Below, piece after piece: positions 9,741 to 63,923 of a DNA stretch of 64,000 nucleotides. The translations under genes and the position numbers were made by a program. The stretch comes from an uncultured Candidatus Saccharibacteria bacterium (lineage in GTDB: Bacteria; Patescibacteriota; Minisyncoccia; Phycocordibacterales; PALSA-1337): the NCBI GenBank assembly GCA_964412585.1, contig CAYPPJ010000001.1, positions 17,995-81,994 on the forward strand, given 5' to 3'. Numbering within the stretch: the first letter of the stretch is position 1; each line of letters starts with the position of its first letter. Under the pieces are notes generated by a model, which did not search any database, was not told the origin of the DNA, and was given only the letters and a program-made list of their open reading frames with translations.

Positions 9741-10124
9741 ATGTTAATGATCCGCCTACAGCGCGTCGGACGCATACACGAACCAACATTTCGTGTTGTG
9801 TTGACTGACTCAAAAAATGGCCCAAAGAGCGGTAAATATCTCAAGAATCTTGGTTGGTATGACACTCGTATCAAGAACAAGGTTGAGCAGATTGATGTTG
9901 AAGCCATCAAGCACTGGACTTCAAAGGGTGCACAGCTTTCAGTCACTCTCCACAATTTCCTCGTCTCAAACAAAGTTATCACTGGCAAGAAGATCAACGC
10001 ACTTCCAAAGAAAACTCCTATAAAGAAAGAAGTTCCTGCAGAAGCTCCAAAGGCTGCTGCAGCTCCTGCTCCAGCCGCTGAAGCTACTCCTGCACCGGCT
10101 GAGACAGCTCCCGTAGCCGCATAA
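9741..10124 (+). CDS. rpsP: 30S ribosomal protein S16, with a C-terminal Ala/Pro-rich extension
   Basis: MLMIRLQRVGR..P.FRVV. N-terminus typical of S16. Confidence 0.85.
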   Translation: MLMIRLQRVGRIHEPTFRVVLTDSKNGPKSGKYLKNLGWYDTRIKNKVEQIDVEAIKHWTSKGAQLSVTLHNFLVSNKVITGKKINALPKKTPIKKEVPAEAPKAAAAPAPAAEATPAPAETAPVAA

Positions 10125-20047: not shown

Positions 20048-21022
20048 ATGCGAAAAATAATTATCAAAGAGGGACCACTTGTGTTCCTCCGAAATGTCCT
20101 ATCGATGGAAATCATCGCGGCCCTGTTCTTTTTCGGGCTCTCCTTTGCGGGCAATTATAGCGCTGCATACAGCAATTGGGGTTTGTCCAGATACGTTCGA
20201 TTTGATCTTTTTGAAATATATTTATTTTCGGCTTTTCAACTTGTTTACTTGGCTTTGCTCTTTCTTGATTGGTATTTCACTCACTACGAAATTAATGACA
20301 AAGAGATCATTCGTAAATCAGGTTTATTGTTCCGCCGGCGCAAATCAGTCAGTCTGGGAGATGTTGCATCGGTAGAGACATACCAATCGCCGATCAGTCG
20401 TCTGATGTCGCATGCCACTATCATCCTTGAGCATAGCAATGGGCGCATGACCAAGATCAAGAATGTGAGTGCCTTCGATGAATACGTGCACGTGATCAAG
20501 GGTATGGTTCAGAGTGCTTCAGGTCGTATCATGACTCGGGATCCGCGTGTTCTGTTGGAAAAAGGAGAAAGTGCCTATGTCGAGTTTAAAGAGACGATGC
20601 GCTATGATGCTCGCAAAGGGGAGATCAGTAAAGAATTGGAGAAGATGGTCCTAAAAACAATTGCTTCGTTTTTGAATGCCGATGGCGGTACATTGCTCAT
20701 CGGGGTAAATGATGAGGGTAAAGCTGTCGGACTTGCCAATGACTACAAAACGCTTACCAAGAAAAATCGTGATGGCTTTGAGAATCATTTGACCATGTTG
20801 GTCAAAACACAGATTGGTCTTGCGTTTGCAAAATACGTGAGTGTCGCGTTTGAGACGATAGAGGGCAATGATATCTGTGTGGTTTCAGTAAAGGAGGGAC
20901 ACAAGCCGGCCTATGTGATGAATGGTGACAAAAAAGAGGATTTCTTTGTGAGGGTAGGGAATTCGACACAACCTTTTTCGATGAGTGAGGCAGAGGAGTA
21001 TATAAAGACACATTGGAAGTAG
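20048..21022 (+). CDS. membrane-anchored fusion of a bacterial PH domain (bPH_2/YdbT-like) and an AlbA_2/Schlafen-type putative DNA-binding domain
   Basis: Two N-terminal TM helices; PH-like segment (EIIRKSGLLFRRRKSVSL..V); C-terminal ESAYVEFKETMRYD....ISKEL.K.IASFLNADGGTLLIGVNDEGKAVGL, the AlbA_2 hallmark. Confidence 0.5.
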   Translation: MRKIIIKEGPLVFLRNVLSMEIIAALFFFGLSFAGNYSAAYSNWGLSRYVRFDLFEIYLFSAFQLVYLALLFLDWYFTHYEINDKEIIRKSGLLFRRRKSVSLGDVASVETYQSPISRLMSHATIILEHSNGRMTKIKNVSAFDEYVHVIKGMVQSASGRIMTRDPRVLLEKGESAYVEFKETMRYDARKGEISKELEKMVLKTIASFLNADGGTLLIGVNDEGKAVGLANDYKTLTKKNRDGFENHLTMLVKTQIGLAFAKYVSVAFETIEGNDICVVSVKEGHKPAYVMNGDKKEDFFVRVGNSTQPFSMSEAEEYIKTHWK

Positions 21023-21303
21023 AAAACTTTATTTTGGGACATAAACACAAAAGCTCCCGAAGGAGCGTTGTGTTACCAGTTTGGATTCGTTATGAATCCT
21101 TGGGCCCAGGGGCCTGTCCCATGAGTTCCACCAGTCGAGATTAATCGACTACATAAGTTTAGTTCACTCATAAATAAAGTCAAGCATTTGTGGACCCATG
21201 GGGATTTGCCCCCCTATAGCCGATGGTAAGCCAACTATTGTCACTATGACTGGGTCCACGGGAAGGAATCGCCTTCCTTGTCATAGAAGATATCAAATCA
21301 AAC

Positions 21304-21342
21304 TGAAGAAACGCTGGAGAAATGATTAAGATTCGCTGGAGA
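21304..21342 (+). repeat. copy A of a 39-bp motif TGAAGAAACGCTGGAGAAATGAT(T/A)AAGATTCGCTGGAGA, with an internal direct repeat CGCTGGAGA 22 bp apart
   Basis: 38/39 identical to 46017-46055; the flanks are unrelated. Confidence 0.85.
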
Positions 21343-21369
21343 TGGATTTATGTGTTCAAATGTCGCGAC

Positions 21370-21397
21370 AAAAAACTCAAGATTAACTTGAGTTTTT
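21370..21397. terminator. perfect palindromic hairpin with an A-run on one side and a T-run on the other (bidirectional terminator)
   Basis: AAAAACTCAAG attaa CTTGAGTTTTT. A second hairpin with an 11-bp stem lies at 21411-21449. Confidence 0.55.
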
Positions 21398-21470
21398 ACT
21401 TCCAACCATTGTCGAACCTCCACAGTACAGCAGTAACGGGAGGTTCGACGGTAGTTATAAGTAGATACTT

Positions 21471-24631: not shown

Positions 24632-24728
24632 ACTTTTTTAGTCTCTTTTGTGTAGTTTGGTTGAGGCAATTCTCCCTAAATCCATAATTTTTCGAAAGAA
24701 CAGCCAGGCAACACTGTACCACATATCT

Positions 24729-24771
24729 AAATCTTCAGCAAATCTTTATCAAATCTTCAGTATTTCTTCAG
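24729..24771 (+). promoter_or_regulatory. four phased direct repeats (A/T)(A/T)ATCTT(C/T)A(G/T) at 11-12-bp spacing upstream of the pilB-like gene
   Basis: AAATCTTCAG at 24729, AAATCTTTAT at 24740, AAATCTTCAG at 24751, TTTCTTCAG at 24763. Confidence 0.35.
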
Positions 24772-24787
24772 TTTAACTTGATATGGT

Positions 24788-25900
24788 ATGTGCATGGATA
24801 AGGCATTTCCCACACAATTAAACACTGCCGTCGATACAATTGAGAATATTCTTTCCTATGCGATTCGACATCGAGCATCTGATATTCATTACGACCCTTC
24901 TGCTCAGGATTCGGTTGTGCGGTTGCGTGTCGATGGTCATGTCTGTTTTGCTGGGATGGTACCCCGTCGGTTGCACCAGGAGATTATTGCTAGGCTCAAG
25001 ATCCTTTCGGGGGCACGAACCGACATTCATGCCATACCACAGGACGGTAGGTGGACTGCCGAATGTGTCGGAGAACTCTATCAGATACGCATCTCTTTCA
25101 TGCCTTCCTATCATGGCGAAAATGCAGTCATGAGGATTCTGCCGACAAAAATAACGTCCGAAGTAACACTTGCGAAGCTCGGCTTCACTCCTGATCATGT
25201 GCGTACTATCGATGGGGCACTGCACAAAACCTCCGGACTCATTCTTGTTACCGGGCCCACAGGATCAGGAAAAACAACAACACTTCATACATGTCTGACA
25301 CTCAAATCGAAAGAACCGCTTTCTATTGTTACCCTTGAAGATCCGGTCGAGTACGAGATCCCGTCAGTGAGACAGGTTCACATTCGTCACAATTTTGGTG
25401 TGACATTTGCCTCAGGTCTTCGTTCAGCACTACGGCAGGATCCGGATGTCATCATGGTGGGAGAAATACGAGATGCTGAGACTGCGCGAGTAGCCATACA
25501 CACCGCACTCACTGGTCACCTCGTGCTTTCAACTCTCCACACAAATTCGGCACTTGAAGCGATTCCGCGACTCGCGGATATGGGTGTAGACCATTATCTA
25601 TTAGCATCAACACTACGTTGTGTGATTGCTCAACGATTGGTTAGGGTTATGTGTACAGAATGTGGGGCAGATGGGTGTAGTGCATGTCGACATACTGGAT
25701 ACAATGGGCGGTCAGTGATTGCAGAAGTTTGTGAGATAGATGATGGTATGAAGCGCCATATTTCTGAGAAGGCTTCTGTCGCAGCATTTACCTCATATGC
25801 GCGCTCACGAGGATTCCGTCCTATGAGTGAGGATGGTCACGAAAAGGTCGAATGGGGCATTACCACGCAGCAAGAGGTAACACGAGTACTCTATGAATAA
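24788..25900 (+). CDS. type IV pilus / type II secretion ATPase (GspE/PilB/PilT family), short form
   Basis: Walker A GPTGSGKTTT, Asp box, His box TLHTNSA, C-terminal Cys cluster. Confidence 0.8.
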   Translation: MCMDKAFPTQLNTAVDTIENILSYAIRHRASDIHYDPSAQDSVVRLRVDGHVCFAGMVPRRLHQEIIARLKILSGARTDIHAIPQDGRWTAECVGELYQIRISFMPSYHGENAVMRILPTKITSEVTLAKLGFTPDHVRTIDGALHKTSGLILVTGPTGSGKTTTLHTCLTLKSKEPLSIVTLEDPVEYEIPSVRQVHIRHNFGVTFASGLRSALRQDPDVIMVGEIRDAETARVAIHTALTGHLVLSTLHTNSALEAIPRLADMGVDHYLLASTLRCVIAQRLVRVMCTECGADGCSACRHTGYNGRSVIAEVCEIDDGMKRHISEKASVAAFTSYARSRGFRPMSEDGHEKVEWGITTQQEVTRVLYE

Positions 25901-26927
25901 TACTTTTCTTGTGTCAATGTTCGAACGACTTGAGATGTACCTATCTGCAGGATTGCCTCTCGACAAAGCTTTACAGACGGTCGCTCATGGTAGTTCAAAA
26001 CGCAATTGCATGATTCTTGAGCGCATACTAGGCGAAGTGTACTCTGGGGAGCGTATTTCAGCATCGTTTTCAAGACATCTTCGTATATCGAAAACACTTT
26101 GTAGTTTGATCGAACACGGTGAGACATCTGGCAATTTACCAGGATCACTGGTGCTGGCCCGGTCAATACTTGAGCGTCAGTCTGACACGTTCAAAAAATG
26201 TACATCCGCGTTGGTGTATCCGATGGTGATTGGTGTTTTTGCGCTCGTATTAACACTAGGACTGGTACGTGGGGTTATGCCGCAGATAACACCAATGCTC
26301 AAAAGCTTGCGTGTACCGTTGCCAGTCCTGACAAAAATTATGATTACTATTTCAGAGCATGTTGTCGCTTATGGATTGTACGTGTGCGCAGGCCTCGTCA
26401 TTCTTGGCGCCATAACAGTGGTACTTTACAAAAAAGTGGCTTGGTTTGCGTACTTATGTCAGTGGTGTGCCACGAGAATTCCGATAGTCGGTAACGTATT
26501 TTTTCTTTATTCCATATCACTATTCCTCAGGTCGTTTGGCTCACTGGTCGAATCAGGGTTACCAGTGCCAGCGTCATACGTGAGTACATCCACGACTCTA
26601 CCTCTTCTTCCTCTCAAAAGAGCACTCCAACAAAAAAGCTCTGAAATTCAAAAAGGTGTCTCACTCGGCGTAATACTATCCACTGTTAATCGAAAGGTGC
26701 CTAGACATGTCTCTTCGCTCGTTTCGGCAGGGGAATTGTCCGGATCTCTCGGGGCTTCTCTAGTTCGCGCTGCCACTATTATTGACCGTGATATGGACCA
26801 TAGTCTGAAAAGACTAACGTCTCTCATTGAGCCACTCATGATGGTCGGCATGGGATGTACTGTTGGTAGCATTGCCTTATCAATAATGATGCCTATTTAT
26901 GACATGTCGAAAGTATTGCAACATTAA
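25893..26927 (+). CDS. type II secretion / type IV pilus platform protein (GspF/PilC family)
   Basis: Two T2SS_F-like repeats with 3-4 TM helices. Confidence 0.75.
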   Translation: MNNTFLVSMFERLEMYLSAGLPLDKALQTVAHGSSKRNCMILERILGEVYSGERISASFSRHLRISKTLCSLIEHGETSGNLPGSLVLARSILERQSDTFKKCTSALVYPMVIGVFALVLTLGLVRGVMPQITPMLKSLRVPLPVLTKIMITISEHVVAYGLYVCAGLVILGAITVVLYKKVAWFAYLCQWCATRIPIVGNVFFLYSISLFLRSFGSLVESGLPVPASYVSTSTTLPLLPLKRALQQKSSEIQKGVSLGVILSTVNRKVPRHVSSLVSAGELSGSLGASLVRAATIIDRDMDHSLKRLTSLIEPLMMVGMGCTVGSIALSIMMPIYDMSKVLQH

Positions 26928-28377
26928 ACAGGGCATTATTCTTGCCGACGTTCTTGTTGCGCTTGCTTTGGCGGTGTTATTGGTAATGAGCGTGACTCAA
27001 CTTTCTGGTAGTGCGCGTGAGATATATGATTCTTCAACAGAAAGGAATCGTTTGATGAATGTGTACGAAGCCCACGCCAATACATTTGATGAGTTGATGC
27101 CCTATGAGTCGCGCAATATTACACTCGACCAGGACGACGGTGAATATGATATGTATGCAACAACGACTATTTCTGCAAACGCCCGTTGGTATGGAAACGA
27201 TCGCATTGAAACACAGGTGACAGTTTCTACAAAGAAAGATTCGGTTACATTTGTACGCATTAGACTCTATCCATTGGGTACCATAGACGATGTGATTGGG
27301 ACACCGATATGTTCAGTTGATTTTGCTCAAAAAGATATTGTTGGCTCATACGGCTATAAATCGTCCCATTCAATTGCTCCAAATCAACTTCATGCAAGTA
27401 TTATCCCAATTTCGTTACCAATAGATCCGACTGTGCCTTTAACAGATGTGATTATACGAAATGGTATTGCATATATATCAACAGACTCGTCACGACAGTC
27501 CGATCCAGATATTCTAATATTCGATATTCATGATACGTCCGATACTCAATTACTCGCAGGACTTAATACAGGTCCTGGCATATCAGCAATCACCCTTGCA
27601 GGAAATCATGTATTTGCTGCTGTGACGAGTAGAACTGCCCAGCTTCAAGATCTGGTAATTAATGATCTTGCGCACATATCGATAGAATCAAGTTACAAAT
27701 TACCGTTACCATATGCTTCAGCAACTCCACCGCTTGCGAGTTCAATATTTTTTGACAAAAATCGCGTTTATCTTGGAACAGAAAAATGGGACGGTGATGA
27801 ATTTTCTATTATTAACGTTTCTGACCCTGCCCACCCAGTAAGGTTGAGCGGGCTTGAAATGGGTTCAAAGATCAATTCTATATATGTGCGGAATGATACT
27901 GCGTACGTAACAGATTCGAATGAACAACAGCTGCGTGTAATACATGCCGCAGATCCTGCGTTGCCGCAATTGGTATACGGATTTAATCCTTCAGGTTGGC
28001 AACGCCAAGAAGGGAAGTCGATATCGTATTTTGAAGACTATGTAGATTTTAGCCGAACATCAGGCGGATTTAATATTAAGACAGACGCAGAACTATTTAG
28101 CTGGGGCACGAGCACTTCACTACTGTATGGTTTTCCACCTACTAAATCCTTAGATGTTCCTGGAGGAATATATGGAATTGTTCGAGATAGGTCATACGTC
28201 TATGCAATAAGTAGGCAGTTGGGCAGTGAACTTCAAATGTTTGATTATTCTCTATCAACAAGCACAAGCAAAGTCATTACATTACCCGTAACACCCCAAG
28301 CTTTAACTTGTGACAACGATTCAATATATGTTTTAGGAGCTAATAATCCGGTATTGTACAAAATTTTATTTAAATAA
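26899..28377 (+). CDS. large pilus-associated protein: prepilin-like hydrophobic N-terminus plus LVIVD-like beta-propeller repeats
   Basis: N-terminus QGIILADVLVALALAVLLV; LQDLVINDL-type repeat; the start overlaps the end of the preceding gene, so the start is uncertain. Confidence 0.4.
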   Translation: MTCRKYCNIKQGIILADVLVALALAVLLVMSVTQLSGSAREIYDSSTERNRLMNVYEAHANTFDELMPYESRNITLDQDDGEYDMYATTTISANARWYGNDRIETQVTVSTKKDSVTFVRIRLYPLGTIDDVIGTPICSVDFAQKDIVGSYGYKSSHSIAPNQLHASIIPISLPIDPTVPLTDVIIRNGIAYISTDSSRQSDPDILIFDIHDTSDTQLLAGLNTGPGISAITLAGNHVFAAVTSRTAQLQDLVINDLAHISIESSYKLPLPYASATPPLASSIFFDKNRVYLGTEKWDGDEFSIINVSDPAHPVRLSGLEMGSKINSIYVRNDTAYVTDSNEQQLRVIHAADPALPQLVYGFNPSGWQRQEGKSISYFEDYVDFSRTSGGFNIKTDAELFSWGTSTSLLYGFPPTKSLDVPGGIYGIVRDRSYVYAISRQLGSELQMFDYSLSTSTSKVITLPVTPQALTCDNDSIYVLGANNPVLYKILFK

Positions 28378-34947: not shown

Positions 34948-34955
34948 TAGATTAG

Positions 34956-35077
34956 AAGCAAGTACGCAAAATACGTGGGATTCGGATACGCGGATACTTT
35001 TCTACTGAAAAGTTCCTATGCTCGGCCTCATCGGCCTCCGCAATGTATCCTCACCCACGTATTTTGCGTACTTGCTT
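34956..35077. repeat. 122-bp element bounded by a perfect 24-bp inverted repeat (AAGCAAGTACGCAAAATACGTGGG / CCCACGTATTTTGCGTACTTGCTT); the 74-bp core has nested hairpins
   Basis: Arms at 34956-34979 and 35054-35077 are exact reverse complements. The core has GGATAC..GTATCC and CTTTTC tact GAAAAG sub-stems. Confidence 0.85.
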
Positions 35078-35100
35078 CGTTACTTGGTATACTTAGTCGC

Positions 35101-45703: not shown

Positions 45704-45961
45704 TCATATATCTCTCAGTCGAACCACCTCTCTCACCTCTTCTTTGAGTTCCCCGATAAGATCTGAGGTGTCTTGTCTGCCTGCTTCTATACGATCCTCT
45801 ACCTCAGCAATCCTCGAATACGTCCTCGCTTCACCTGCATCTATTCGTTCCTCAAGCCTTTCAAAACTACGTGCGATAGATACAGCAACATCGTCACTGT
45901 GCTTGAATATAATACGCTCAATAAGTTCTACATCTTTTTGATCTAATGACATGGTGTTCAT
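45704..45961 (-). CDS. small acidic coiled-coil protein with internal repeats (E.RI.AGE)
   Basis: 85 aa; EERIDAGEA / EDRIEAGRQ repeats. Confidence 0.4.
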   Translation of the reverse strand: MNTMSLDQKDVELIERIIFKHSDDVAVSIARSFERLEERIDAGEARTYSRIAEVEDRIEAGRQDTSDLIGELKEEVREVVRLRDI

Positions 45962-46016
45962 GTGTTATGTCCATTTGCATGGATACTAATAATGACACCA
46001 CCATAGCAAAGCCATA

Positions 46017-46055
46017 TGAAGAAACGCTGGAGAAATGATAAAGATTCGCTGGAGA
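46017..46055 (+). repeat. copy B of the 39-bp motif (see 21304-21342), 56-94 nt upstream of the coiled-coil gene start on the other strand
   Basis: TGAAGAAACGCTGGAGAAATGATAAAGATTCGCTGGAGA. Confidence 0.85.
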
Positions 46056-54441: not shown

Positions 54442-55410
54442 TTACTGTTTTAGTGTGATGCCATGTTGTGCCAATAATTTCTTGATCTCCTGAATGCCTT
54501 TTGCGCCAAGTCCGTCGATATCCATGATATCTGACTCCTTCTTTCGAGCAAGACCGCCAAGCGTGCGAACGTTACCATTTGCAAGAGCTTTTGCGGTGCG
54601 AGCAGAAAAACCAAGTGAATCAATACGAGTCTTGAGGAGGTCTGCATCAATATCCTTGAGTGAGCCTTCTGGAGACTCTGCCTTTTCATCGATAGAAGCA
54701 ACTGCTGCCTCAGGCTCGTCCTCGGTAAATCCAACAATCGCCTTGAGCTGGCTAATCATGAGTGAAATAGACTTTTCGAGAGCTTCACGAGGAGAAATGG
54801 TACCATCTGTCTCGATAGACATGCGGAGACGGTTGAAGTCAGTGCGATCGCCAACACGCATGTTTTCTACTTCGTAGTTCGCCTTGCGAATCGGTGTAAA
54901 TGCTGCATCGAGAGTGATGGATCCAATATCAACACGATCTTTCTGGATGATCTCCTTTGGAACATACCCAAGACCTTTTTCGACAGTGATCTCCATATCA
55001 AGCTCAGATGACTTTTCGGTAAGAGAAGCGATGTGGAGTTCTGGGTTCAGAATCTCGACCTGACCAGGAGCTTCGATATCCTTTGCGCTAATCTCCTTTG
55101 CACCTTTTGCTTTGAGAGTAAGGACAACTGGCTCATCTCCGGTCACGCGGACGCGAAGCTTCTTGAGAGCGAGCAACATGGTAATGACGTCTTCTTTGAT
55201 ACCAGTCAAAGCGGAAAATTCGTGCTCAACGCCAGCAATTTTGACCTTGGTAACAGCTGCACCTGGAAGTGACGACAAAATAATGCGGCGGAGGGAGTTG
55301 CCCAACGTGTGCCCGTATCCTGGATAAAGGCCATCGATTTCGTAGGTGCCACTTGCACCCTGTTCATTGATGACTTTTGGCTTTGATGGAAGGATGAGAT
55401 CGTGTGTCAT
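54442..55410 (-). CDS. rpoA: DNA-directed RNA polymerase alpha subunit
   Basis: GHTLGNSLRRILLSS N-terminal domain motif; C-terminal domain. Confidence 0.9.
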   Translation of the reverse strand: MTHDLILPSKPKVINEQGASGTYEIDGLYPGYGHTLGNSLRRIILSSLPGAAVTKVKIAGVEHEFSALTGIKEDVITMLLALKKLRVRVTGDEPVVLTLKAKGAKEISAKDIEAPGQVEILNPELHIASLTEKSSELDMEITVEKGLGYVPKEIIQKDRVDIGSITLDAAFTPIRKANYEVENMRVGDRTDFNRLRMSIETDGTISPREALEKSISLMISQLKAIVGFTEDEPEAAVASIDEKAESPEGSLKDIDADLLKTRIDSLGFSARTAKALANGNVRTLGGLARKKESDIMDIDGLGAKGIQEIKKLLAQHGITLKQ

Positions 55411-55458
55411 GGTGTTTATAAAATAGACGATTAATTATACATTAAAAATGATACTTGT

Positions 55459-56064
55459 CTAGCGAGTATAGAACTCGAGCACTGCACGAACATCGAACAA
55501 GAGCTCAGTCATATCTGTCGCAGGTTCACCCTCGATCTTGATCTCTTTCTTGTCTGTATTTACTGACATCCAAGCGGGAGCTTTGACATTCTTGAGCTCC
55601 TCGTCCAATTTTGCGAAAATGGTCTTCTTTTTACTGCCCTCACGAATAGTAATAATATCTCCAATACGTACTTGGTATGATGGAACATCGACCTTCTTGC
55701 CATTGACCGTAAAATGACCATGGTTGACCATCTGACGAGCAGCTGCACGGCTCAATGCAAAACCAGCACGGAGAACTGCGTTGTCAAGACGTCCTTCTAG
55801 AATGCGGAGCAGGTTCTTTGCGTTATCACCTGTCGTCTGGAGTGCAGACTTGACGTAGTTGGTGAACTGACCACCTGAAATGCCGTAGCTGTAGCGAGCC
55901 TTTTGTTTTTCCAAAAGCTGACGGCCAAATTCACTCTTGGCACTGCGGCGCTTGGTACTCTTGGTCTTTGCCTGCATGCGCAATGCGTACTTTGGTGTCT
56001 GCGTCTTTCGAAAGACGGCGGCACCGAGGTAACGAGCTTTTTTGTATCGTGGGCCAATAAGCAT
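55459..56064 (-). CDS. rpsD: 30S ribosomal protein S4
   Basis: GPRYKKARYLG; S4 domain. Confidence 0.9.
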   Translation of the reverse strand: MLIGPRYKKARYLGAAVFRKTQTPKYALRMQAKTKSTKRRSAKSEFGRQLLEKQKARYSYGISGGQFTNYVKSALQTTGDNAKNLLRILEGRLDNAVLRAGFALSRAAARQMVNHGHFTVNGKKVDVPSYQVRIGDIITIREGSKKKTIFAKLDEELKNVKAPAWMSVNTDKKEIKIEGEPATDMTELLFDVRAVLEFYTR

Positions 56065-56079
56065 GGAAGTATAATTATA

Positions 56080-56508
56080 TTAAACGCGACGAGGTTTCTT
56101 TGGCTGAGGGCCGTTGAATGGGATCGGGGTCTCATCTTTGATCGAAGTGATGACCACGCCCTTGCTGATAAAGCCACGAATGGCAGATTCACGGCCAGAA
56201 CCGACACCTTTGACTACCACAGCAACCTCTTTGAGGCCGATGTTTTGTGCCTTGAGTGCCAACGTTTCACCGACCTTTGCAGCTGCAAAAGGAGTACCCT
56301 TCTTGGCACCACGGAAACCAGCACCGCCTGAAGAACCCCACATCAGTGCATTGCCCTTTGCATCAGTCAACATAACCTTGGTGTTATTGTAGGTAGATTG
56401 AACATGGAGAATACCAGTCTCAATGCGCTTTTTTGCCGAAACAGCCGGTGCTTTCTTTGCATCAGTCTGTTCTGCTCCTTCAGTTGTAACAATTCTTTTT
56501 TTACCCAT
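56080..56508 (-). CDS. rpsK: 30S ribosomal protein S11
   Basis: HV.ST.NNT.V..TD..GN....SSGG.GF.G. Confidence 0.9.
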   Translation of the reverse strand: MGKKRIVTTEGAEQTDAKKAPAVSAKKRIETGILHVQSTYNNTKVMLTDAKGNALMWGSSGGAGFRGAKKGTPFAAAKVGETLALKAQNIGLKEVAVVVKGVGSGRESAIRGFISKGVVITSIKDETPIPFNGPQPKKPRRV

Positions 56509-56529
56509 GGTAGTGATATGAATAGCTGA

Positions 56530-56910
56530 TTACTTCTTTTCTTCCTTACGCTTACCTGATCCCATTGTCTTGCGGACGTTGCCACGAACTGTTCGTGAGT
56601 TGGTCTTTGTGCGCTGACCGCGTGATGGGAGATGGCGAGCATGCCTGTTACCACGATAGGCCTTGATATCCTTGAGACGTTTGATATTGGCAGCGACCTC
56701 GCGCTTGAGATCACCCTCAATCTTGAAACTTTCGACGAGCTTACGGACTTCATTTTCCTGCTCAACAGAGAGAGCCGTCGAACGGGTAGCTGGGTCAACT
56801 TTTGCTGTTTTCAAAATATTGAGAGCACGAGAACGTCCAATGCCGTATATAGCAGTCAAGGCGATTTCGAGTCGCTTGTTTTCTGGGACTGTTATACCGA
56901 GGATACGCAT
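56530..56910 (-). CDS. rpsM: 30S ribosomal protein S13
   Basis: MRILGI..P..KR.EIALT.IYGIG. Confidence 0.9.
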   Translation of the reverse strand: MRILGITVPENKRLEIALTAIYGIGRSRALNILKTAKVDPATRSTALSVEQENEVRKLVESFKIEGDLKREVAANIKRLKDIKAYRGNRHARHLPSRGQRTKTNSRTVRGNVRKTMGSGKRKEEKK

Positions 56911-56947
56911 AGATGTATAAAAATAAGGGTATTAATGAATATGAAAA

Positions 56948-57064
56948 TTATCCTTGGCGCTGCTTGTGACGTGGGTTTGACTTGCATACCACATACACAT
57001 AACTGCCCCGGCGGACGACGGAACACTTTGAACAGATTTTTTTGACTGAAGCTTTGACTCTCAT
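56948..57064 (-). CDS. rpmJ: 50S ribosomal protein L36 (not in the ORF track; found by hand translation)
   Basis: [38 protein letters not shown]; classic L36 with C..C..C..H zinc ribbon; sits between infA and rpsM as expected. Confidence 0.85.
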
Positions 57065-57066
57065 GA

Positions 57067-57300
57067 TTATGACCTTCTTGTTATTCGAGCACGACCTCCG
57101 TATGGATCAATATCCAAATCAACCTTATCTCCAATGAGAACGCGGATTCGATTCATTCTCATTTTTCCCGCAAGATAGGCAAGTATGACTTCCTTCGTGT
57201 CATTCAGCTCTACCCGGAATAGCGTATTCGGCAATGCCTCTACGACAATGCCGCTTGCGGTATTTTTTGCGGAGTTTTTTGATTGTGGCGCTGTGTCCAT
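57067..57300 (-). CDS. infA: translation initiation factor IF-1
   Basis: G.V.E.LPN..FRVEL.....V.A...GKMR...IR...GD.V....PYG..G.RI..R. Confidence 0.85.
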
Positions 57301-57340
57301 CTGGTAATTGGCGCGTCGATACATCCTAGCAGATACTAGG

Positions 57341-58762
57341 CTATTTCGTCAATACCTCCACGGTTATACGGTCCAAATCTGTTGGCACATTCGACCATGG
57401 GGGTGTAATAGACCCTGAACCTTTTTCGAATTCGATGACAGGCTTGAACGAGTGGAGTACGGTACTTGTCTCCGTCAACGAAAGGCCCGCAAGTTTTTGT
57501 TTGATCTGATCGACCGGAACAGAACCAACGAGCATGGCGTCACCTTTGAGTTTAATAATCAACGTATTTTTCTTTTCAGGAGAAAAATCTTTTGCGTTGG
57601 CTATAGTGAAATCAAGTGACTCGAGACCAGGCGTTTCATAAGCGAAGCTGCCAAAGGATGCAACCGCCTCTTCACCAGCTACACGAGATACCAACTCTGA
57701 TCTCTTAAAGAGAATCCCGTGCACTGTTCCCTGTAAAGTTATTGTTGCCGATTTTGCGTCGCTACCCCCGATAACCGGTGCGCCAAATGTGGACACATAC
57801 GCTTTTGGATACATAACATACCCCTCAGGAACGCTCGACTTCAATTTTGTCAAAAGTCCCGCAACAAGTTTAGACTGCAAATCAGCTGTTGTGGATGCCA
57901 ATGTGGCAGGACTAATCGTCTTCTTTGCCCCAACAAAACCGCCAGTCAGATCTGTTGCTAGACGTGCATATATCGAATCATATTTTGCACTACCTTTGTA
58001 TGCGACGATCTTGAGGTCGCTTACTGGGTCACTCTTCGTAACATTGTATGACTGACCAGGCTGATCCGCTGTTATCATGACAGAAACAGTGCCTGGAGAT
58101 GTATTTGATCCAGATACGGTGTAGCCCGGTATGACGACAGAACTCGCCAGACGGTACACTCTCCCTGTATCATCACTGAGACGCGTACCCGCAATCAAGC
58201 GTTGTGATTGTGCGCTATATGAGTTGTACAAGGTGACCTTCCCTTTTGCAGATGTAGAGATTTTTGGTCCATCAGTTGCGGGAACTGTTCCAGTAGAGTC
58301 GCCTTTGATGGTGGCAATCTCATATACCAGCACACCCTTTCCCGGAATACTTTGTGAAATATATGTGCTATCAACAGTAAAAGGAATGACTTTTGGAACA
58401 ATAGTGAATGACGCTCGAGAAAAATACACTGATGCAATATAGCCCACAATAGCCACAAGTATCACGATACCCATCACTATATATAGAAATTTTCGGGCAC
58501 CGGAGCGTTTTTTTGGTCGCACCGCTTTGATGGGCACTTCGTCTTGATCCCCATCTTGAATATCAAGGCTTTTTTTACGTGAACTCGTTGTAACCACTTC
58601 TTCCTTCTCCGGTTCGAGATCTACTTTGCGCATAGACACAGGGCGACCTGCCTTTTTCTTTGGGGGCTGGATAGGAGCGACGATTTCAACCGGGCGTTCT
58701 ACCGGAATATCCCGTATTGAACGGTGAGTATTAGGTACAATGTCTTGAACGCGGCGAGGCAT
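57341..58762 (-). CDS. bitopic membrane protein: about 100-aa basic disordered cytoplasmic N-terminus, one TM helix, large Ser/Thr-rich extracytoplasmic domain
   Basis: Lys/Arg/Pro-rich N-terminus, TM FLYIVMGIVILVAIVGYIASVYF, no motif. Confidence 0.45.
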   Translation of the reverse strand: MPRRVQDIVPNTHRSIRDIPVERPVEIVAPIQPPKKKAGRPVSMRKVDLEPEKEEVVTTSSRKKSLDIQDGDQDEVPIKAVRPKKRSGARKFLYIVMGIVILVAIVGYIASVYFSRASFTIVPKVIPFTVDSTYISQSIPGKGVLVYEIATIKGDSTGTVPATDGPKISTSAKGKVTLYNSYSAQSQRLIAGTRLSDDTGRVYRLASSVVIPGYTVSGSNTSPGTVSVMITADQPGQSYNVTKSDPVSDLKIVAYKGSAKYDSIYARLATDLTGGFVGAKKTISPATLASTTADLQSKLVAGLLTKLKSSVPEGYVMYPKAYVSTFGAPVIGGSDAKSATITLQGTVHGILFKRSELVSRVAGEEAVASFGSFAYETPGLESLDFTIANAKDFSPEKKNTLIIKLKGDAMLVGSVPVDQIKQKLAGLSLTETSTVLHSFKPVIEFEKGSGSITPPWSNVPTDLDRITVEVLTK

Positions 58763-58787
58763 ATAAAAATACTATACCATATGAACT

Positions 58788-59936
58788 CTATTTTACTAAA
58801 CTGTGAACAGCCAACACGTACAATCCAGTCAATCGCAATCGTTCCGCATGAGTTCCATATGATACATACGGTGTAATCTGATCAATATCAAGTATCTCTG
58901 GTGATGATTGCGGATATGCAGTCTTAAAACTTTCTACAAAAAAATCTTCGTGCGTACGAGCGGAGATAATAACTTTTGCTGGAACTGCTTCAGGCGTTGA
59001 GCTTGTTTTGAGAAGTTTTTTGAACTCACCCGTCCATCCCTGCTGCATGTTGACTATTGCTGCTGATTCTTTTTTTGCTTGAGTAGCATCAATATCTTTT
59101 TTCATGACTAAATTGAGGGTCGATTCGGCAGCATCATCACTCGTATTAGTCTCTTTGGCTATACTTCGGATGATATGCTGTACACCAAACGGGTAGGAAC
59201 CAAAAAAAGAGCACGAGTGGGCATGAATAATGGCAACGTCCGTCAATTCCCCATGAATATGGATAAGTGCATAATCTGAGACATTCGGGACGATCTTTTG
59301 AATACTGAGATGCTGTAGAAAAAGTGACGAATGGAACTGTATATGATCCTTGTGACGTACAATACTCTCGACTGATTCGATGAATTTATCAATCATACGG
59401 CCTCCAGCAATACTTACCACAAATGAAACACCGAGCTCCTTGGTGTGACGACTCTCCCAGGATGCCACAGAATACCCATTGAGCCTAACATCAAATACCT
59501 TCTCCTCAATCACTCGGATATCGTCGGCGGCACTAGAAGTCATCTTTGAACGTTCCTCCCAGATAATACCGCTCACGTAGGCGCGACTCACCGCAGTATC
59601 TTCTTTGAACGATGTAGAAATTGTTTTTGCTTGAGAAACAGTCCACGGAGAAGAGAGGACAAAATGTACGGATGAAATACGATGGGGTAATTCACTCGCA
59701 TTCACTTCTGACTGAAGGTTGGCTCGCACCGCTTGAACTATTTCTTCAACTCCCCGTAGTGCCATCTTGATCAAATAACCACTACCACCATCAGGTTTGT
59801 AAGGAATGGAAACATTGTGTGTGTACAAGATTGTAGGAATTGCGCCTGCGTGCATGTGTACCAATGATCCACGAACAACGGAACTCTGAACGTCGATAAT
59901 GAGCATCAATTCATTCTGTGAACTTGAGAAAAGCAT
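58788..59936 (-). CDS. actin-like (ASKHA-fold) ATPase, FtsA/PilM-like
   Basis: Phosphate-1-like LIIDVQSSVVRGSLV and phosphate-2-like ALIHIHGELTDVAII segments; 382 aa. Confidence 0.4.
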   Translation of the reverse strand: MLFSSSQNELMLIIDVQSSVVRGSLVHMHAGAIPTILYTHNVSIPYKPDGGSGYLIKMALRGVEEIVQAVRANLQSEVNASELPHRISSVHFVLSSPWTVSQAKTISTSFKEDTAVSRAYVSGIIWEERSKMTSSAADDIRVIEEKVFDVRLNGYSVASWESRHTKELGVSFVVSIAGGRMIDKFIESVESIVRHKDHIQFHSSLFLQHLSIQKIVPNVSDYALIHIHGELTDVAIIHAHSCSFFGSYPFGVQHIIRSIAKETNTSDDAAESTLNLVMKKDIDATQAKKESAAIVNMQQGWTGEFKKLLKTSSTPEAVPAKVIISARTHEDFFVESFKTAYPQSSPEILDIDQITPYVSYGTHAERLRLTGLYVLAVHSLVK

Positions 59937-60020
59937 TACCGATTATTATATCATAAGAAAAAAGTGGCTATCCGAAGCGAAGACAACTGGAGCGAGTTTC
60001 ATGCCAATGAGCAGGAGACC

Positions 60021-61877
60021 CTATTCCAGGACAGCCTTAATCCTCCTCACCCCTTGTGAACTTGCCTCCTCTTTTTGAATTTTGAATTTCCACTTCCCTT
60101 CTGGACCAGCCAATTCTTTCGTATTTTTTACATGAGGGCCACCACAAAACTCCTTCGAATACGCGGTTTCTAGATTATCACCTATATAGTAAATAGAAAT
60201 CTCATCGCCATATTTTTCTCCAAAGAAATGTCGCGCACCAGTTTTTTCTGCTTCTGCACGAGGCAAGACTACATTATTCATTGGTAGCGCTGCGGCAATT
60301 TTTTCATTCACTATATCTTCTACACGCTTTTTTTGCTCATCTGTCAGCTTTACACCAGTAAAATCAAAACGCAAACGCTCAGCAGTGATGTTCGATCCTT
60401 TTTGATCACCTTCATTTTCTCCGAGGACATCGTGAAGGGCTTGGTGCAGAAGATGTGTTGCGGTGTGATAACGAACAACCATTGGGTCATGCGCATCAGC
60501 AAGGCCACCTTTGAATTTTTGTTCAGCACCGGCACGAGAGAGGTCTTGGTGTTTTTTAATTAATTCATTAACGAGATCCTTATTGAAAGTAATGCCCTTT
60601 TCTTTGCATATCTCTTCAGTAAGTTCAATTGGAAAACCATATGACTGATAAAGGTCAAATACAATATCTGCCGGAATTTCTTTTATTTTAATTGGGGGAA
60701 GGCTGACATGCACAATTTTTTGTTCCAAAATTTTAATGCCGTGTGCAAGTGTCTCGCGGAATTTAATTTCTTCATCCTTGATTGGACTGCCCACAGAAAG
60801 ACCTTGGTGACCGCCCCTAACAGTTTGTGAATATATCTGGCCATAGATACTTTGAACAACCTCTACAAGTGCTATGAGTGAAGTAGCTGGGTCCATTTTC
60901 AAAATGTCAGAATGACGCACCGCTCTACGAATAAGCTTGCGTAATACGTACCCTCTATCGGAATTTGAAGGTAGGACCCCGTCAGCAACCAGGTGAACTG
61001 CGGCCCTGACGTGATCCGCAACAATGCGCGCAGAAACAACGTCCCAATTTTTTGAAAGCTCCTTGATCTTATCCATCACCGGCTTCAACAAGTCTGTATC
61101 ATAAATGTTATCAACTCCCTGCAATGTCATAGCCAGACGTTCAAGCCCTGCTCCTGTATCCACAGATGGCTTCGGCAATTTTCCAACAATCTTTCCATCT
61201 TTCTTCTCATACTGCATGAAAACATCGTTCCAAATCTCAACCACCACACGATCATCGTCAGCCTTGATATATTCTTCCTGAGTGATTCCTCTCCCGCCAA
61301 ATTCGTTTTTGATATCATAAAACATTTCTGTGTCAGGACCACAGGGACCATTGTCTCCCGCCTCCCACCAATTGGTCTTGGCTCCTCGGAAGAATATGCG
61401 CTCACCTTCGACGCCATTCTTTTTGAAAATGTCACTCCAGATAGCCGCTGCCTCATCATCCTTTGGCGCATTCTCATCTCCTTCAAACACAGTCACGTAC
61501 AAACGTCTCGGATCAAGTCCAAGGCCTTCTTTTGGATCAGTGAGAAATTCGTAACTCCAATTGATCGCTTCTTTTTTGAAATAATCACCAAGCGACCAGT
61601 TGCCGAGCATCTCAAAAAAAGTCGCGTGAGTCTTGTCGCCAATATCATCAATATCCACTGTACGAACGCATTTTTGGACATCAACAAGCCGAACCCCTTG
61701 CGGATGAGTTTTACCAAGTAAATATGGAACCAATGGCTGCATGCCGGCGGTATTGAACAACGTTGAGTTGGTTACACCCTTTTCGTCTGGCGTGACCAAG
61801 GATGCAGATGGAATAACCGCGTGTCCACGCTTTTCAAAAAAAGATAGAAACCGAGAGCGAATCTCTGATGAGTTCAT
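60021..61877 (-). CDS. alaS: alanyl-tRNA synthetase, short form lacking most of the C-Ala domain
   Basis: FLSFFEKRGH, F.TAGM, WS.GDY class II motifs; editing-domain HTATHLLH...CGG.H; 618 aa. Confidence 0.85.
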   Translation of the reverse strand: MNSSEIRSRFLSFFEKRGHAVIPSASLVTPDEKGVTNSTLFNTAGMQPLVPYLLGKTHPQGVRLVDVQKCVRTVDIDDIGDKTHATFFEMLGNWSLGDYFKKEAINWSYEFLTDPKEGLGLDPRRLYVTVFEGDENAPKDDEAAAIWSDIFKKNGVEGERIFFRGAKTNWWEAGDNGPCGPDTEMFYDIKNEFGGRGITQEEYIKADDDRVVVEIWNDVFMQYEKKDGKIVGKLPKPSVDTGAGLERLAMTLQGVDNIYDTDLLKPVMDKIKELSKNWDVVSARIVADHVRAAVHLVADGVLPSNSDRGYVLRKLIRRAVRHSDILKMDPATSLIALVEVVQSIYGQIYSQTVRGGHQGLSVGSPIKDEEIKFRETLAHGIKILEQKIVHVSLPPIKIKEIPADIVFDLYQSYGFPIELTEEICKEKGITFNKDLVNELIKKHQDLSRAGAEQKFKGGLADAHDPMVVRYHTATHLLHQALHDVLGENEGDQKGSNITAERLRFDFTGVKLTDEQKKRVEDIVNEKIAAALPMNNVVLPRAEAEKTGARHFFGEKYGDEISIYYIGDNLETAYSKEFCGGPHVKNTKELAGPEGKWKFKIQKEEASSQGVRRIKAVLE

Positions 61878-61914
61878 GGCAGGATAGTATCACGAATTAC
61901 TTGAAAAAGTAACA

Positions 61915-62175
61915 TTATTCACCCCCAATATAGAATAGAATCGTAAGCATGACGACAAGAAACAAGGCGACCCACAACACAACCTCGCTCGCTGTATAGA
62001 AATGTTTGTGGGTCGGTAATAGATCAGTGCGCACACGTTTGTCGTGAACAGCAAAGGCGTTATCAATCTGTTCCTTGCTCCAACCACCCGCCTGGAGGCT
62101 CACAATGAGTGAATTGCGCGGAATCCCTTGGCGAAGTTGACTGTCAACGTAATGTGTAAATTCTTCAGGCTTCAT
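61915..62175 (-). CDS. hypothetical protein with a C-terminal TM helix
   Basis: 86-aa ORF; hydrophobic tail. Confidence 0.3.
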   Translation of the reverse strand: MKPEEFTHYVDSQLRQGIPRNSLIVSLQAGGWSKEQIDNAFAVHDKRVRTDLLPTHKHFYTASEVVLWVALFLVVMLTILFYIGGE

Positions 62176-62207
62176 ACGTGTATCTATTATACACCAAATG
62201 GAGCAAG

Positions 62208-63923
62208 CTAGTTCATCTTCTTGATCCAGGCACGGTATTTCTTGTCCATATCCTCAAAACTAACCTTATTATCAGCGATTTTCTTCTTGCCATGCACCAT
62301 ATTGATACGACCATCAAGATCGACTGGCCCTGTATATGCCTTGACCGACTGTAGTCTGAGTATACGAGCTTGTGCAGTTTTGAGAATCTCATCAACCGAA
62401 CGAGTAACCTCATGAATGAACGCATCTGGACTCAATTTTTTGCCCGTAGCCATAGCTACCAGCTTTTTTGCCGGATATGACGAAGCATATGACCACATCT
62501 TAGTCATCTCCTTGCCTACATTAGGGTTGTCCACAATGTATCCGTATTTCTTGAAAAAATACTCACGCCACTGAGATACGCCGAGCTCAGCCAAGCCATA
62601 CCCGTGATAGTACGCAGAACTTTCCCACGAATAAATATGTGGGACATTGAGAATGCCAATAGTGTCCTCAGACCGGTCAAAGTACGTACGGGCAACTTTT
62701 CTCGCAATGTCGAGAACTTTTGTGCGGGTGAGATTCTTTGTCTCATATATTTCTTTCTCAAAAAAGATGACAAAGCAGATACTCATCATATCGAGAGGCA
62801 TCAACGGTTGAAGTTTACGCACCTTGCGTTCATAGAGGTCAAATGGGTATGGTTCGCCTTTTTCGTTCTTCACATACCGCATACGCCATTCGATACTGCT
62901 CGAAATCGTATCCATAAACATACTATGGGTCTCCGCCCACGAAACTGACGAAGGTGGATATTCTGAGTTAACGCAGGCATCCTTTTGGGTCGAACAGAGC
63001 CTGTCAGCTGCGTGACCTGCCTCATGAAATACTGTATGAATACCTTGAACACCTGATCCAACCTGATCAGCAATAGCATCCGACGTAAAATTGGCCGAAC
63101 CAGGAATACGTTTGTTGCCCTTATACTCTACAAGCTTTGGGTAATGGCAAAATCCATTGTTATGCTTCCCTTTTCTATCCAGGAGATCGAGAGTGACTGT
63201 GCCACCGTTGAAACCGACACCGAGTGCTGCAAATGATCTGCCCCAGTAGGACAACACGTTTTCAAATCTAAAATACGGATCTTCTTCTTTAACAAAATCT
63301 CCCGTCATCATATAGGCGAAGTTCCATGGCTTGCGTAGTCCGGGCATTGTATTCTCAAGGTCGCGGATGCTTTTAAATCCGTACTTCGTTTTTTCATAGA
63401 TATTTTCAAAAATCGAAAAGAGTTCTTTTTTGGTCATATCTTCATCAATGCGAGCCTTGTATTCGTAGAAATCAGAAAAACCGAGGGCTCGTGCAAATTC
63501 GTTGCGAACGTTGATGACAGCAATATATTCGTCTAAATAATCGAGTGGTAACTTCTCGAGGGCGTCAAAACAAGCTTTTCTAACACTCTCACTTGGATGC
63601 GTACGCATCAACACCCGCATACGGTTCTCGGAGGCCTCAACAAATGTACTCGTGACTGGGTCAATATACCCTTCGGTTCGGGCCGTCCTTTTTTGCGCAA
63701 TCTTATTTTCAAGATCAAGGGCTTTCTTTTTGAGTGGCAACGCATGAGCTGGTGTTTGGTACAAATCAAAAAAATGATTCCACTGTTTGAGGCGAGTCTC
63801 GTTTTCACCAGTCGCCTTTTTGAGGTAGAGAATCGTTTCTGCTTTGAGGTCGGCATCTGCCCTAAAAGCATCGCGAGCCAACTGGGCTTCATTCATCTTT
63901 GTATCGACACTATGGTCACCCAT
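62208..63923 (-). CDS. zinc metallopeptidase with HExxH (M3 oligoendopeptidase F-like or M32-like)
   Basis: TVFHEAGHA zinc-binding motif; about 570 aa, all-helical-looking. Confidence 0.45.

Follow-up and report, generated by a model that had tools for sequence, protein, structure and literature searches.

PhoB, PmrA and Bacillus PhoP recognise boxes of hexameric half-sites with 5-bp spacers, giving an 11-bp period, on which they bind head to tail and replace the -35 contact; the PmrA half-site is CTTAAT, and Bacillus PhoP core sites contain four such repeats. At weak promoters, LytTR-type regulators such as AgrA and ComE, the latter controlling competence genes, bind upstream to two 9-bp direct repeats set about 21-22 bp apart. 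To our knowledge, almost nothing is known about the control of transcription in CPR/Patescibacteria, which are uncultivated and have very few recognisable regulators. The targets of SARP regulators carry direct repeats spaced by 11 or 22 bp at a fixed distance from the -10 element, and the 22-bp afs box, centred at -29.5 with its upstream repeat at -40 to -30, is bound by a side-by-side SARP dimer that substitutes for the -35 contact at promoters with poor -35 and -10 elements (PMC10936776). Highly similar promoters upstream of non-homologous genes of one genome have been described as putative mobile promoters (Matus-Garcia et al. 2012, PMC3488235).

The 64,000-nucleotide stretch of DNA analysed here (the window) is bacterial in content and holds chiefly housekeeping genes, including truB, bipA/typA, scpA/scpB, ftsW, murG, gltX, rplI, corA, cysS and trpS/tyrS, as well as dnaJ, grpE and ribosomal proteins. 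Judged from its sequence, it contains a promoter cassette that is a real, conserved, lineage-specific cis-regulatory element and a new example of a known regulatory architecture. Two 39-mers, TGAAGAAACGCTGGAGAAATGATWAAGATTCGCTGGAGA, lie at 21304-21342 (copy A) and 46017-46055 (copy B) on the plus strand with 38 of 39 positions identical, as the first-pass annotation of this DNA had reported; matches with up to three mismatches number two in the window and zero in 100 dinucleotide-preserving shuffles. The word CGCTGGAGA does occur twice per copy, 22 bp apart, giving four exact occurrences in the whole window, where its one-mismatch variants are not enriched. The flanks had been called unrelated, which holds beyond about 14 nt; the left 14 nt or so are still alike between copies A and B, and a repeat finder stretched the match to 53 nt at 89% identity. 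The statement that the motif is present twice is right for the two near-identical copies but overlooked a third, diverged one on the minus strand at 24732-24770, TGAAGAAATACTGAAGATTTGATAAAGATTTGCTGAAGA (copy C), which we saw on reading the region and which lies within an inverted match reported by the repeat finder (21290-21366 against 24708-24784). A coding or leader-peptide reading was rejected: copy A runs into a stop codon, as had been noted, copies A and B are both intergenic, and the 37-codon ORF following copy B is unconserved. No known RNA family was found at or near the copies at gathering thresholds, with only noise at E<=10. Readings as sigma-54, CsrA or CtsR-like sites were discarded by eye, as relatives have GAA in place of GGA and the spacings misfit.

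We found that the conserved unit is 56 bp long rather than 39 and consists, on the strand opposite to the 39-mer as first read, of four 11-bp repeats, 3 nt and the motif TGnTAnnnT. The first nine instances all align without gaps on this scheme, and the 36 repeats in them give the consensus TCTTYAKYRww, with T31/C34/T33/T32/Y33/A35 at positions 1-6. A PWM scan of the window returned three modules only, at 53-65 bits; scores above 12 bits elsewhere were shifted versions of the same three sites, and shuffled sequences reached at most 5.3 bits. The distance between repeat 4 and the TG is 3 nt in every one of 18 modules, and this fixed distance to the extended -10 shows the functional orientation to be the reverse of the one adopted in the first-pass annotation. 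Its two sites at 22 bp likewise give way to four half-sites in register with an 11-bp period, the longer period arising because two repeat flavours (TCTCCAGCG and TCTTWATCA) alternate within the 11-bp lattice. TGnTAnnnT is read as an extended -10 box, the whole cassette as a promoter and the 39-mer as its upstream repeat array. The modules, their predicted targets and the adjoining elements are as follows.

21287-21342, minus strand: module A, PWM score 53.2 bits; repeats TCTCCAGCGAA TCTTAATCATT TCTCCAGCGTT TCTTCAGTTTG, spacer att, extended -10 box TGATATCTT at 21295-21287

About 21280, minus strand: predicted transcription start of module A

21189-21277, minus strand: target of module A, a leader hairpin (21277-21261) followed by a tRNA-like RNA (21259-21189)

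21183-21156, minus strand: second promoter, sigma-70-type, TTGACT-N16-TAAACT

About 21149-21043, minus strand: second small RNA (sRNA), with an intrinsic terminator at 21066-21053 plus a T run

21370-21449, minus strand: two hairpins, the terminator region of the bipA-21471 transcription unit, directly before module A

24732-24787, plus strand: module C, PWM score 65.2 bits; repeats TCTTCAGCAAA TCTTTATCAAA TCTTCAGTATT TCTTCAGTTTA, spacer act, extended -10 box TGATATGGT at 24779-24787

24794-28377, plus strand: target operon of module C (T2SSE, T2SSF and a pilin-like protein)

24794, plus strand: true start ATG of the T2SSE ATPase (MDKAFPTQ), 6 nt past the -10 hexamer

25893-26927, plus strand: T2SSF platform protein

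26899-28377, plus strand: 492-aa protein with a prepilin-type N-terminus

46000-46055, minus strand: module B, PWM score 55.0 bits; repeats TCTCCAGCGAA TCTTTATCATT TCTCCAGCGTT TCTTCATATGG, spacer ctt, extended -10 box TGCTATGGT at 46008-46000

About 45993, minus strand: predicted transcription start of module B

About 46089-46057: trpS terminator, with module B starting right behind it

45704-45952, minus strand: target of module B, an 82-aa coiled-coil protein (MSLDQKD...), its start taken from homologue alignment

Modules A and B each start immediately behind the terminator of the upstream unit. The strong hairpins that had been noted beside copy A do exist, and they form the terminator region of the upstream unit listed above. 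Copy A had been described as lying between convergent genes; far from being a mere spacer, it appears to be the promoter of the unit that comprises the tRNA-like RNA and the sRNA. The placement of copy B upstream of a small coiled-coil gene was correct.

The direction of transcription is fixed by start codons, which recur at 6-7 nt from the -10 hexamer. Six nucleotides separate the module C hexamer, TATGGT, from an ATG that aligns with the N-termini of T2SSE orthologues, the spacing expected of a leaderless mRNA, so the T2SSE mRNA is probably leaderless. The T2SSE start codon lies 6-7 nt past the hexamer in the window and in relatives L020, L021, L022, L023 and L024, and an unrelated target gene of 126 aa in L001 also starts 6 nt past it; two relatives have longer T2SSE leaders, of 12 nt (L019) and about 85 nt (L002). 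Since mraY also starts on the other side of the module in L011, its orientation rests on the conserved -10 box and not on gene position alone. The small coiled-coil gene probably starts at 45952, 9 nt downstream of the annotated 45961.

No TTGACA-like hexamer was found 16-18 nt upstream of the -10 in the module promoters. Their -10 hexamers are suboptimal (TATGGT, TACAGT) and weaker than the TATAAT of neighbouring promoters, and the canonical form TTGACA-N16/17-TAnnnT is found at housekeeping promoters of this genome, the bipA promoter among them, and at the second promoter of locus A. These features bear on the possibility that the array is a repressor operator, on which a protein would polymerise over -62 to -19 and occlude an otherwise constitutive extended -10 promoter. 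Four adjoining sites over the polymerase footprint would repress well, and extended -10 promoters, of which this genome has many, can work without a -35 element. However, the 3-nt spacing, invariant in the 18 modules, is expected for a contact with polymerase and needless for occlusion, and the -10 hexamers are weaker than the TATAAT of nearby promoters; we regard repression as unlikely.

A TATAAT-like box, often with an upstream TG, was also seen 6-10 nt before the ATG of many window genes, for example at the starts 30892, 33180, 39454, 43402 and 35102 and at the minus-strand gene 60021-61877. Shine-Dalgarno sequences are mostly invisible at window gene starts. Leaderless or short-leader mRNAs made from extended -10 promoters thus seem common in this genome, and their commonness in the lineage would help the annotation of gene starts.

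From the repeat structure, the fixed distance to the -10, the conservation at orthologous promoters and the positions of the start codons, we infer that a protein binds the array, that it activates rather than represses, and which family of factors it may resemble. With moderate confidence, we propose that the cassette represents an activator-dependent promoter class defining a small regulon, with the 39-mer array as the docking site of a tandem-binding activator. A sequence-specific protein, probably in the form of two dimers, would occupy all four repeats in tandem along a single face of the helix. If the hexamer is placed at -12 to -7, the repeats would occupy -62 to -52, -51 to -41, -40 to -30 and -29 to -19, and the proximal pair (-40 to -19, centre -29.5) would replace the -35 contact and recruit RNA polymerase, in the mode of PhoB/PmrA-type and SARP-type winged-helix activators. 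The invariant 3-nt spacing suggests a contact between the bound protein and the polymerase. In the window the cassette would drive three units, namely the pilus ATPase-platform-pilin operon, the small coiled-coil protein and the tRNA-like RNA, and the result would be a small lineage-specific regulon in Candidatus Taylorbacteria.

With its 11-bp tandem direct repeats, and with the proximal pair lying over the absent -35, the module appears to have the layout of OmpR, PhoB and SARP sites. As at the target promoters of AfsR-type SARPs of Streptomyces, repeats 3 and 4 would, with the hexamer placed as above, span -40 to -19 before the -10. The module differs from those targets in having four repeats rather than two, a TCTTYA core, an extended -10 and often a leaderless mRNA; it belongs to a CPR bacterium, and the sequence scanned yielded no protein of the SARP or OmpR type. 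The likeness to PmrA sites extends to the CTTAAT half-site, which is even present as repeat 2 of copy A, whereas the module's targets are unrelated to the phosphate or envelope-stress functions of PhoB, PmrA and PhoP, and the nearby two-component genes encode a kinase and a receiver lacking a DNA-binding domain, with no cognate regulator found. MraZ boxes, which lie upstream of the dcw cluster, are also several tandem direct repeats spaced by about one helical turn before a promoter, but their GTGG[G/T] core is absent here, where the core is TCTTYA.

A LytTR-type regulator of the AgrA/ComE kind, bound to two 9-bp repeats 21-22 bp apart, would explain the ABAB alternation of the repeats in the window, MHRT01, L001 and L022, where the 22-bp period is stronger than the 11-bp one, and ComE-type promoters also depend on extended -10 boxes. 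Such sites have a non-repeat spacer of 12-13 bp between the 9-mers; here the intervening 11-mers hold the same TCTTYA core in register, another in-phase core that makes four sites, and the alternation is weak in L013, L019 and L020. Neither the scanned window proteins nor the 10-kb left flank gave a LytTR protein. We consider a regulator of this type quite improbable and retain the four-site activator array.

Among the Pfam-scanned window proteins no transcription factor was found, even at E<=1 for the unannotated ORFs tested; the scan covered the window ORFs outside the ribosomal-protein/RpoA block (54442-63923), with the exception of several more. The 10-kb left flank of the window (L026, from the same genome and matching the window exactly in the 3,000 nt compared) gave no candidate for the module's factor among its called genes, its regulators being a PAS histidine kinase, a stand-alone receiver that lacks any output domain, and MraZ, which has boxes of its own. 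At 4070-4150 of L026, three AAGTGG(G) direct repeats around a -10 upstream of mraZ are the expected MraZ autoregulatory boxes, and the PAS histidine kinase and the receiver-only response regulator adjoin them. MraZ itself was ruled out as the factor, its own boxes (AAGTGGG, AAGTGGG, AAGTGG) having a core unlike TCTTYA. The small coiled-coil protein was also discarded as a DNA-binding candidate, since it consists of a short and one long helix, matches no fold or family and offers nothing supportive. The factor of the OmpR/PhoB kind that had been proposed thus fits the phased direct repeats but has no regulator tied to the module; because no response regulator or other DNA-binding protein is linked to it, the OmpR/PhoB assignment stays an analogy. 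As a cassette readable from sequence, the module offers a concrete, testable CPR regulon and a bait for finding its regulator.

Exact-pattern scans of genome and metagenome collections gave matches solely in Candidatus Taylorbacteria MAGs and in matching groundwater contigs, in 3 and 9 stretches respectively, which were mostly the same two loci repeatedly; viral contigs gave zero matches. The many dozens of dispersed copies that, according to the first-pass annotation, would point to a REP-like element were not seen, with few copies per genome in the collections. The conservation in relatives whose absence it had named as an argument against function was found at orthologous sites: the module precedes the small coiled-coil gene in L003, L013 and L015, T2SSE in L002 and L019-L024, and the tRNA-like gene in L011, L019, L020 and L022. 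Relatives retain the 11-bp lattice, the TCTTYA core and the 3-nt spacer, with drift at the other positions. No further modules were found in about 20 kb of flanking sequence from several relatives or in the 10 kb to the left of this DNA. L017, a more distant relative, has another 11-bp phased array at 9830-9960, with TGAACArGATT followed by wTTTATC units, which ends 6 nt before a TATAGT box ahead of the small-protein gene and may be a diverged form of this module.

Two direct copies 24.7 kb apart with unrelated flanks could also be members of a dispersed small repeat of the REP or MITE kind, or the attL and attR of a 24.7-kb integrated element. The interval between copies A and B is, however, occupied by syntenic housekeeping genes (bipA, scpAB, ftsW, murG, gltX, rplI, corA, cysS), and since it is core genome that is syntenic in relatives, we rejected the att-site reading; no integrase was seen among the Pfam-scanned ORFs. 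There are three copies, one of them inverted, with neither terminal inverted repeats nor target duplications, and few copies occur per genome (three in 64 kb), with none in viral contigs, so that we give a dispersed repeat or an att pair hardly any credence. A phage-derived repeat was ruled out by the few copies and by the viral contigs without a match.

We then compared the copies over the 47 nt of the repeats and spacer. Copies within a genome share a mean of 37.7 positions, while between genomes the figure is 28.5 for orthologous copies and 28.9 for non-orthologous ones; single pairs reach 42/47 for copies A and B, 43/47 for the MHRT01 copies and 42/47 for the L022 copies. This excess likeness within genomes, seen for the modules of the window, L002/L003, L013/L019, L020 and L022, holds even when the strains compared have BipA proteins with 98% identity, and the near-identity of A and B reported earlier is explained by copies within a genome being more alike than orthologous copies. 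Near-identical promoter segments before non-homologous genes of one genome are what defines mobile promoters, and they are found here; the module differs in keeping its targets from genome to genome and in having no associated mobile element. The likeness is better described as concerted evolution of the operators of a regulon. Copies A and B have in common a derived TCTCCAG flavour that is absent from copy C, and recent gene conversion or copying between them is the simplest reason for their 38/39 identity; in L022, where both copies carry another derived core, TCATCAC, the cause may instead be that operators and factor have co-evolved.

The same comparison bears on a promoter cassette that works independently of any protein, whose copies would have spread within the genome and stayed similar through gene conversion, with repeats acting like an UP element or bent DNA. 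Gene conversion needs no factor, and it would account for the within-genome value (37.7/47) exceeding that between orthologues (28.5/47) and for A and B sharing 38 of 39 nt while copy C does not; reused promoters have also been documented (PMC3488235). What it does not account for is that the same three or four targets keep modules differing by 40-50% across genomes; the preservation of the TCTTYA core and its phase points to sequence-specific recognition, and the repeats are not A-tracts. A cassette of this protein-independent sort is in our view very unlikely, and we prefer operators bound by a common activator.

Through these operators the cassette would tie the tRNA-like RNA to a pilus/T2SS-like apparatus and to a small coiled-coil protein that is universally conserved. 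In CPR episymbionts, the type IV pilus/T2SS-like apparatus is thought to serve host attachment and DNA uptake. An invariant SIARSFERLEERID core marks the 82-85 aa protein downstream of module B, which has more than 400 close homologues in Taylorbacteria/Paceibacteria but falls into none of the Pfam or NCBIfam families. It is predicted to form a short helix and then a single long one (pLDDT 93), and no PDB fold matched this model.

The RNA downstream of module A is 71 nt long, with a fully paired acceptor stem, an 8-bp anticodon stem, the loop CUUACCA and a D arm with a 4-bp stem and a 3-nt loop. Loci with a tRNA-like RNA, followed by a separate sigma-70 promoter and an sRNA, were found at five places.

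Window: 21043-21277, minus strand

L011: 1487-1700

L019: 11975-12165

L020: 12655-12850

L022: 12366-12620

The acceptor stems of the five tRNA-like RNAs are fully paired and entirely different in sequence; the D stem has 3-4 bp and a loop of 3-4 nt, and the T arm carries the canonical UUCGAUU except in the window. RNAalifold recovered the acceptor, anticodon and T stems, with compensatory changes in 16 of the 21 pairs. The anticodon loop reads C-U-NNN-C-A, where NNN is UAC in the window, L019 and L020, CAU in L011 and UGU in L022, so that the anticodon is that of Val, Met or Thr depending on lineage. Position 37, normally a purine in canonical tRNAs, is C in all five. Default ARAGORN and Rfam searches accepted none of the five as a tRNA: the window RNA was not called, those of L019 and L020 were called only at relaxed thresholds, and that of L011 scored 26.7 bits against the Rfam gathering score of 29. 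On detection, on the D-loop G18G19 and on a purine at 37, the tRNA-like RNA departs from canonical tRNAs. A two-piece tmRNA was rejected, as only T-arm-driven matches of 12-14 bits were obtained and both acceptor strands are contiguous.

Within 21082-21067 the sRNA of the window contains UGGUAA, a complement of the anticodon loop of the tRNA-like RNA. A G-codon-A word matching the cognate loop (GGUAA, GAUGA or GACAA) was found in cognate combinations only, each with a shuffle probability of about 0.04-0.12, and non-cognate combinations gave zero matches. In a duplex-energy test the cognate pair was clearly the best only for L011; the Val-type pairs were equivocal, and in L022 the cognate was best for the loop and not for the sRNA. 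The predicted pairing between loop and sRNA is a lead, not a result.

A joint reading of these observations, which we offer tentatively, is that of a Taylorbacteria-specific regulon coupling pilus machinery to an RNA switch or sponge pair, with operator and factor co-evolving fast. The tRNA mimic would be made from the regulated promoter and the sRNA from its own sigma-70 promoter, both RNAs evolving fast. They would act as an RNA-RNA switch or sponge based on anticodon-codon pairing, distinct from T-boxes and from every Rfam family, and the co-evolution of operator and factor would be rapid between strains with 98% identical BipA. The tRNA mimic with its partner sRNA is a more unusual lead than the promoter cassette.

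A gene on the plus strand at 20048-21022, encoding a membrane-anchored bPH_2 plus Schlafen/AlbA_2 protein, converges on the tRNA-like/sRNA locus, and a Schlafen gene near bipA recurs in L019, L020, L024 and L025. Eukaryotic Schlafens cut tRNAs, and by analogy a link between the Schlafen-type protein and the tRNA mimic is conceivable.

Two further repeats were noted in the window. An intergenic inverted repeat at 34955-35078 has perfect 25-bp arms and a 74-nt loop; an extended -10 box, TGGTATACT, and the probable true ATG (35102) of a 2-hydroxyacid dehydrogenase gene follow shortly downstream. At 2359-2462, a 52-nt unit is tandemly duplicated (51 of 52 positions identical) across the 3' end of a DoxX-like gene (1955-2443).
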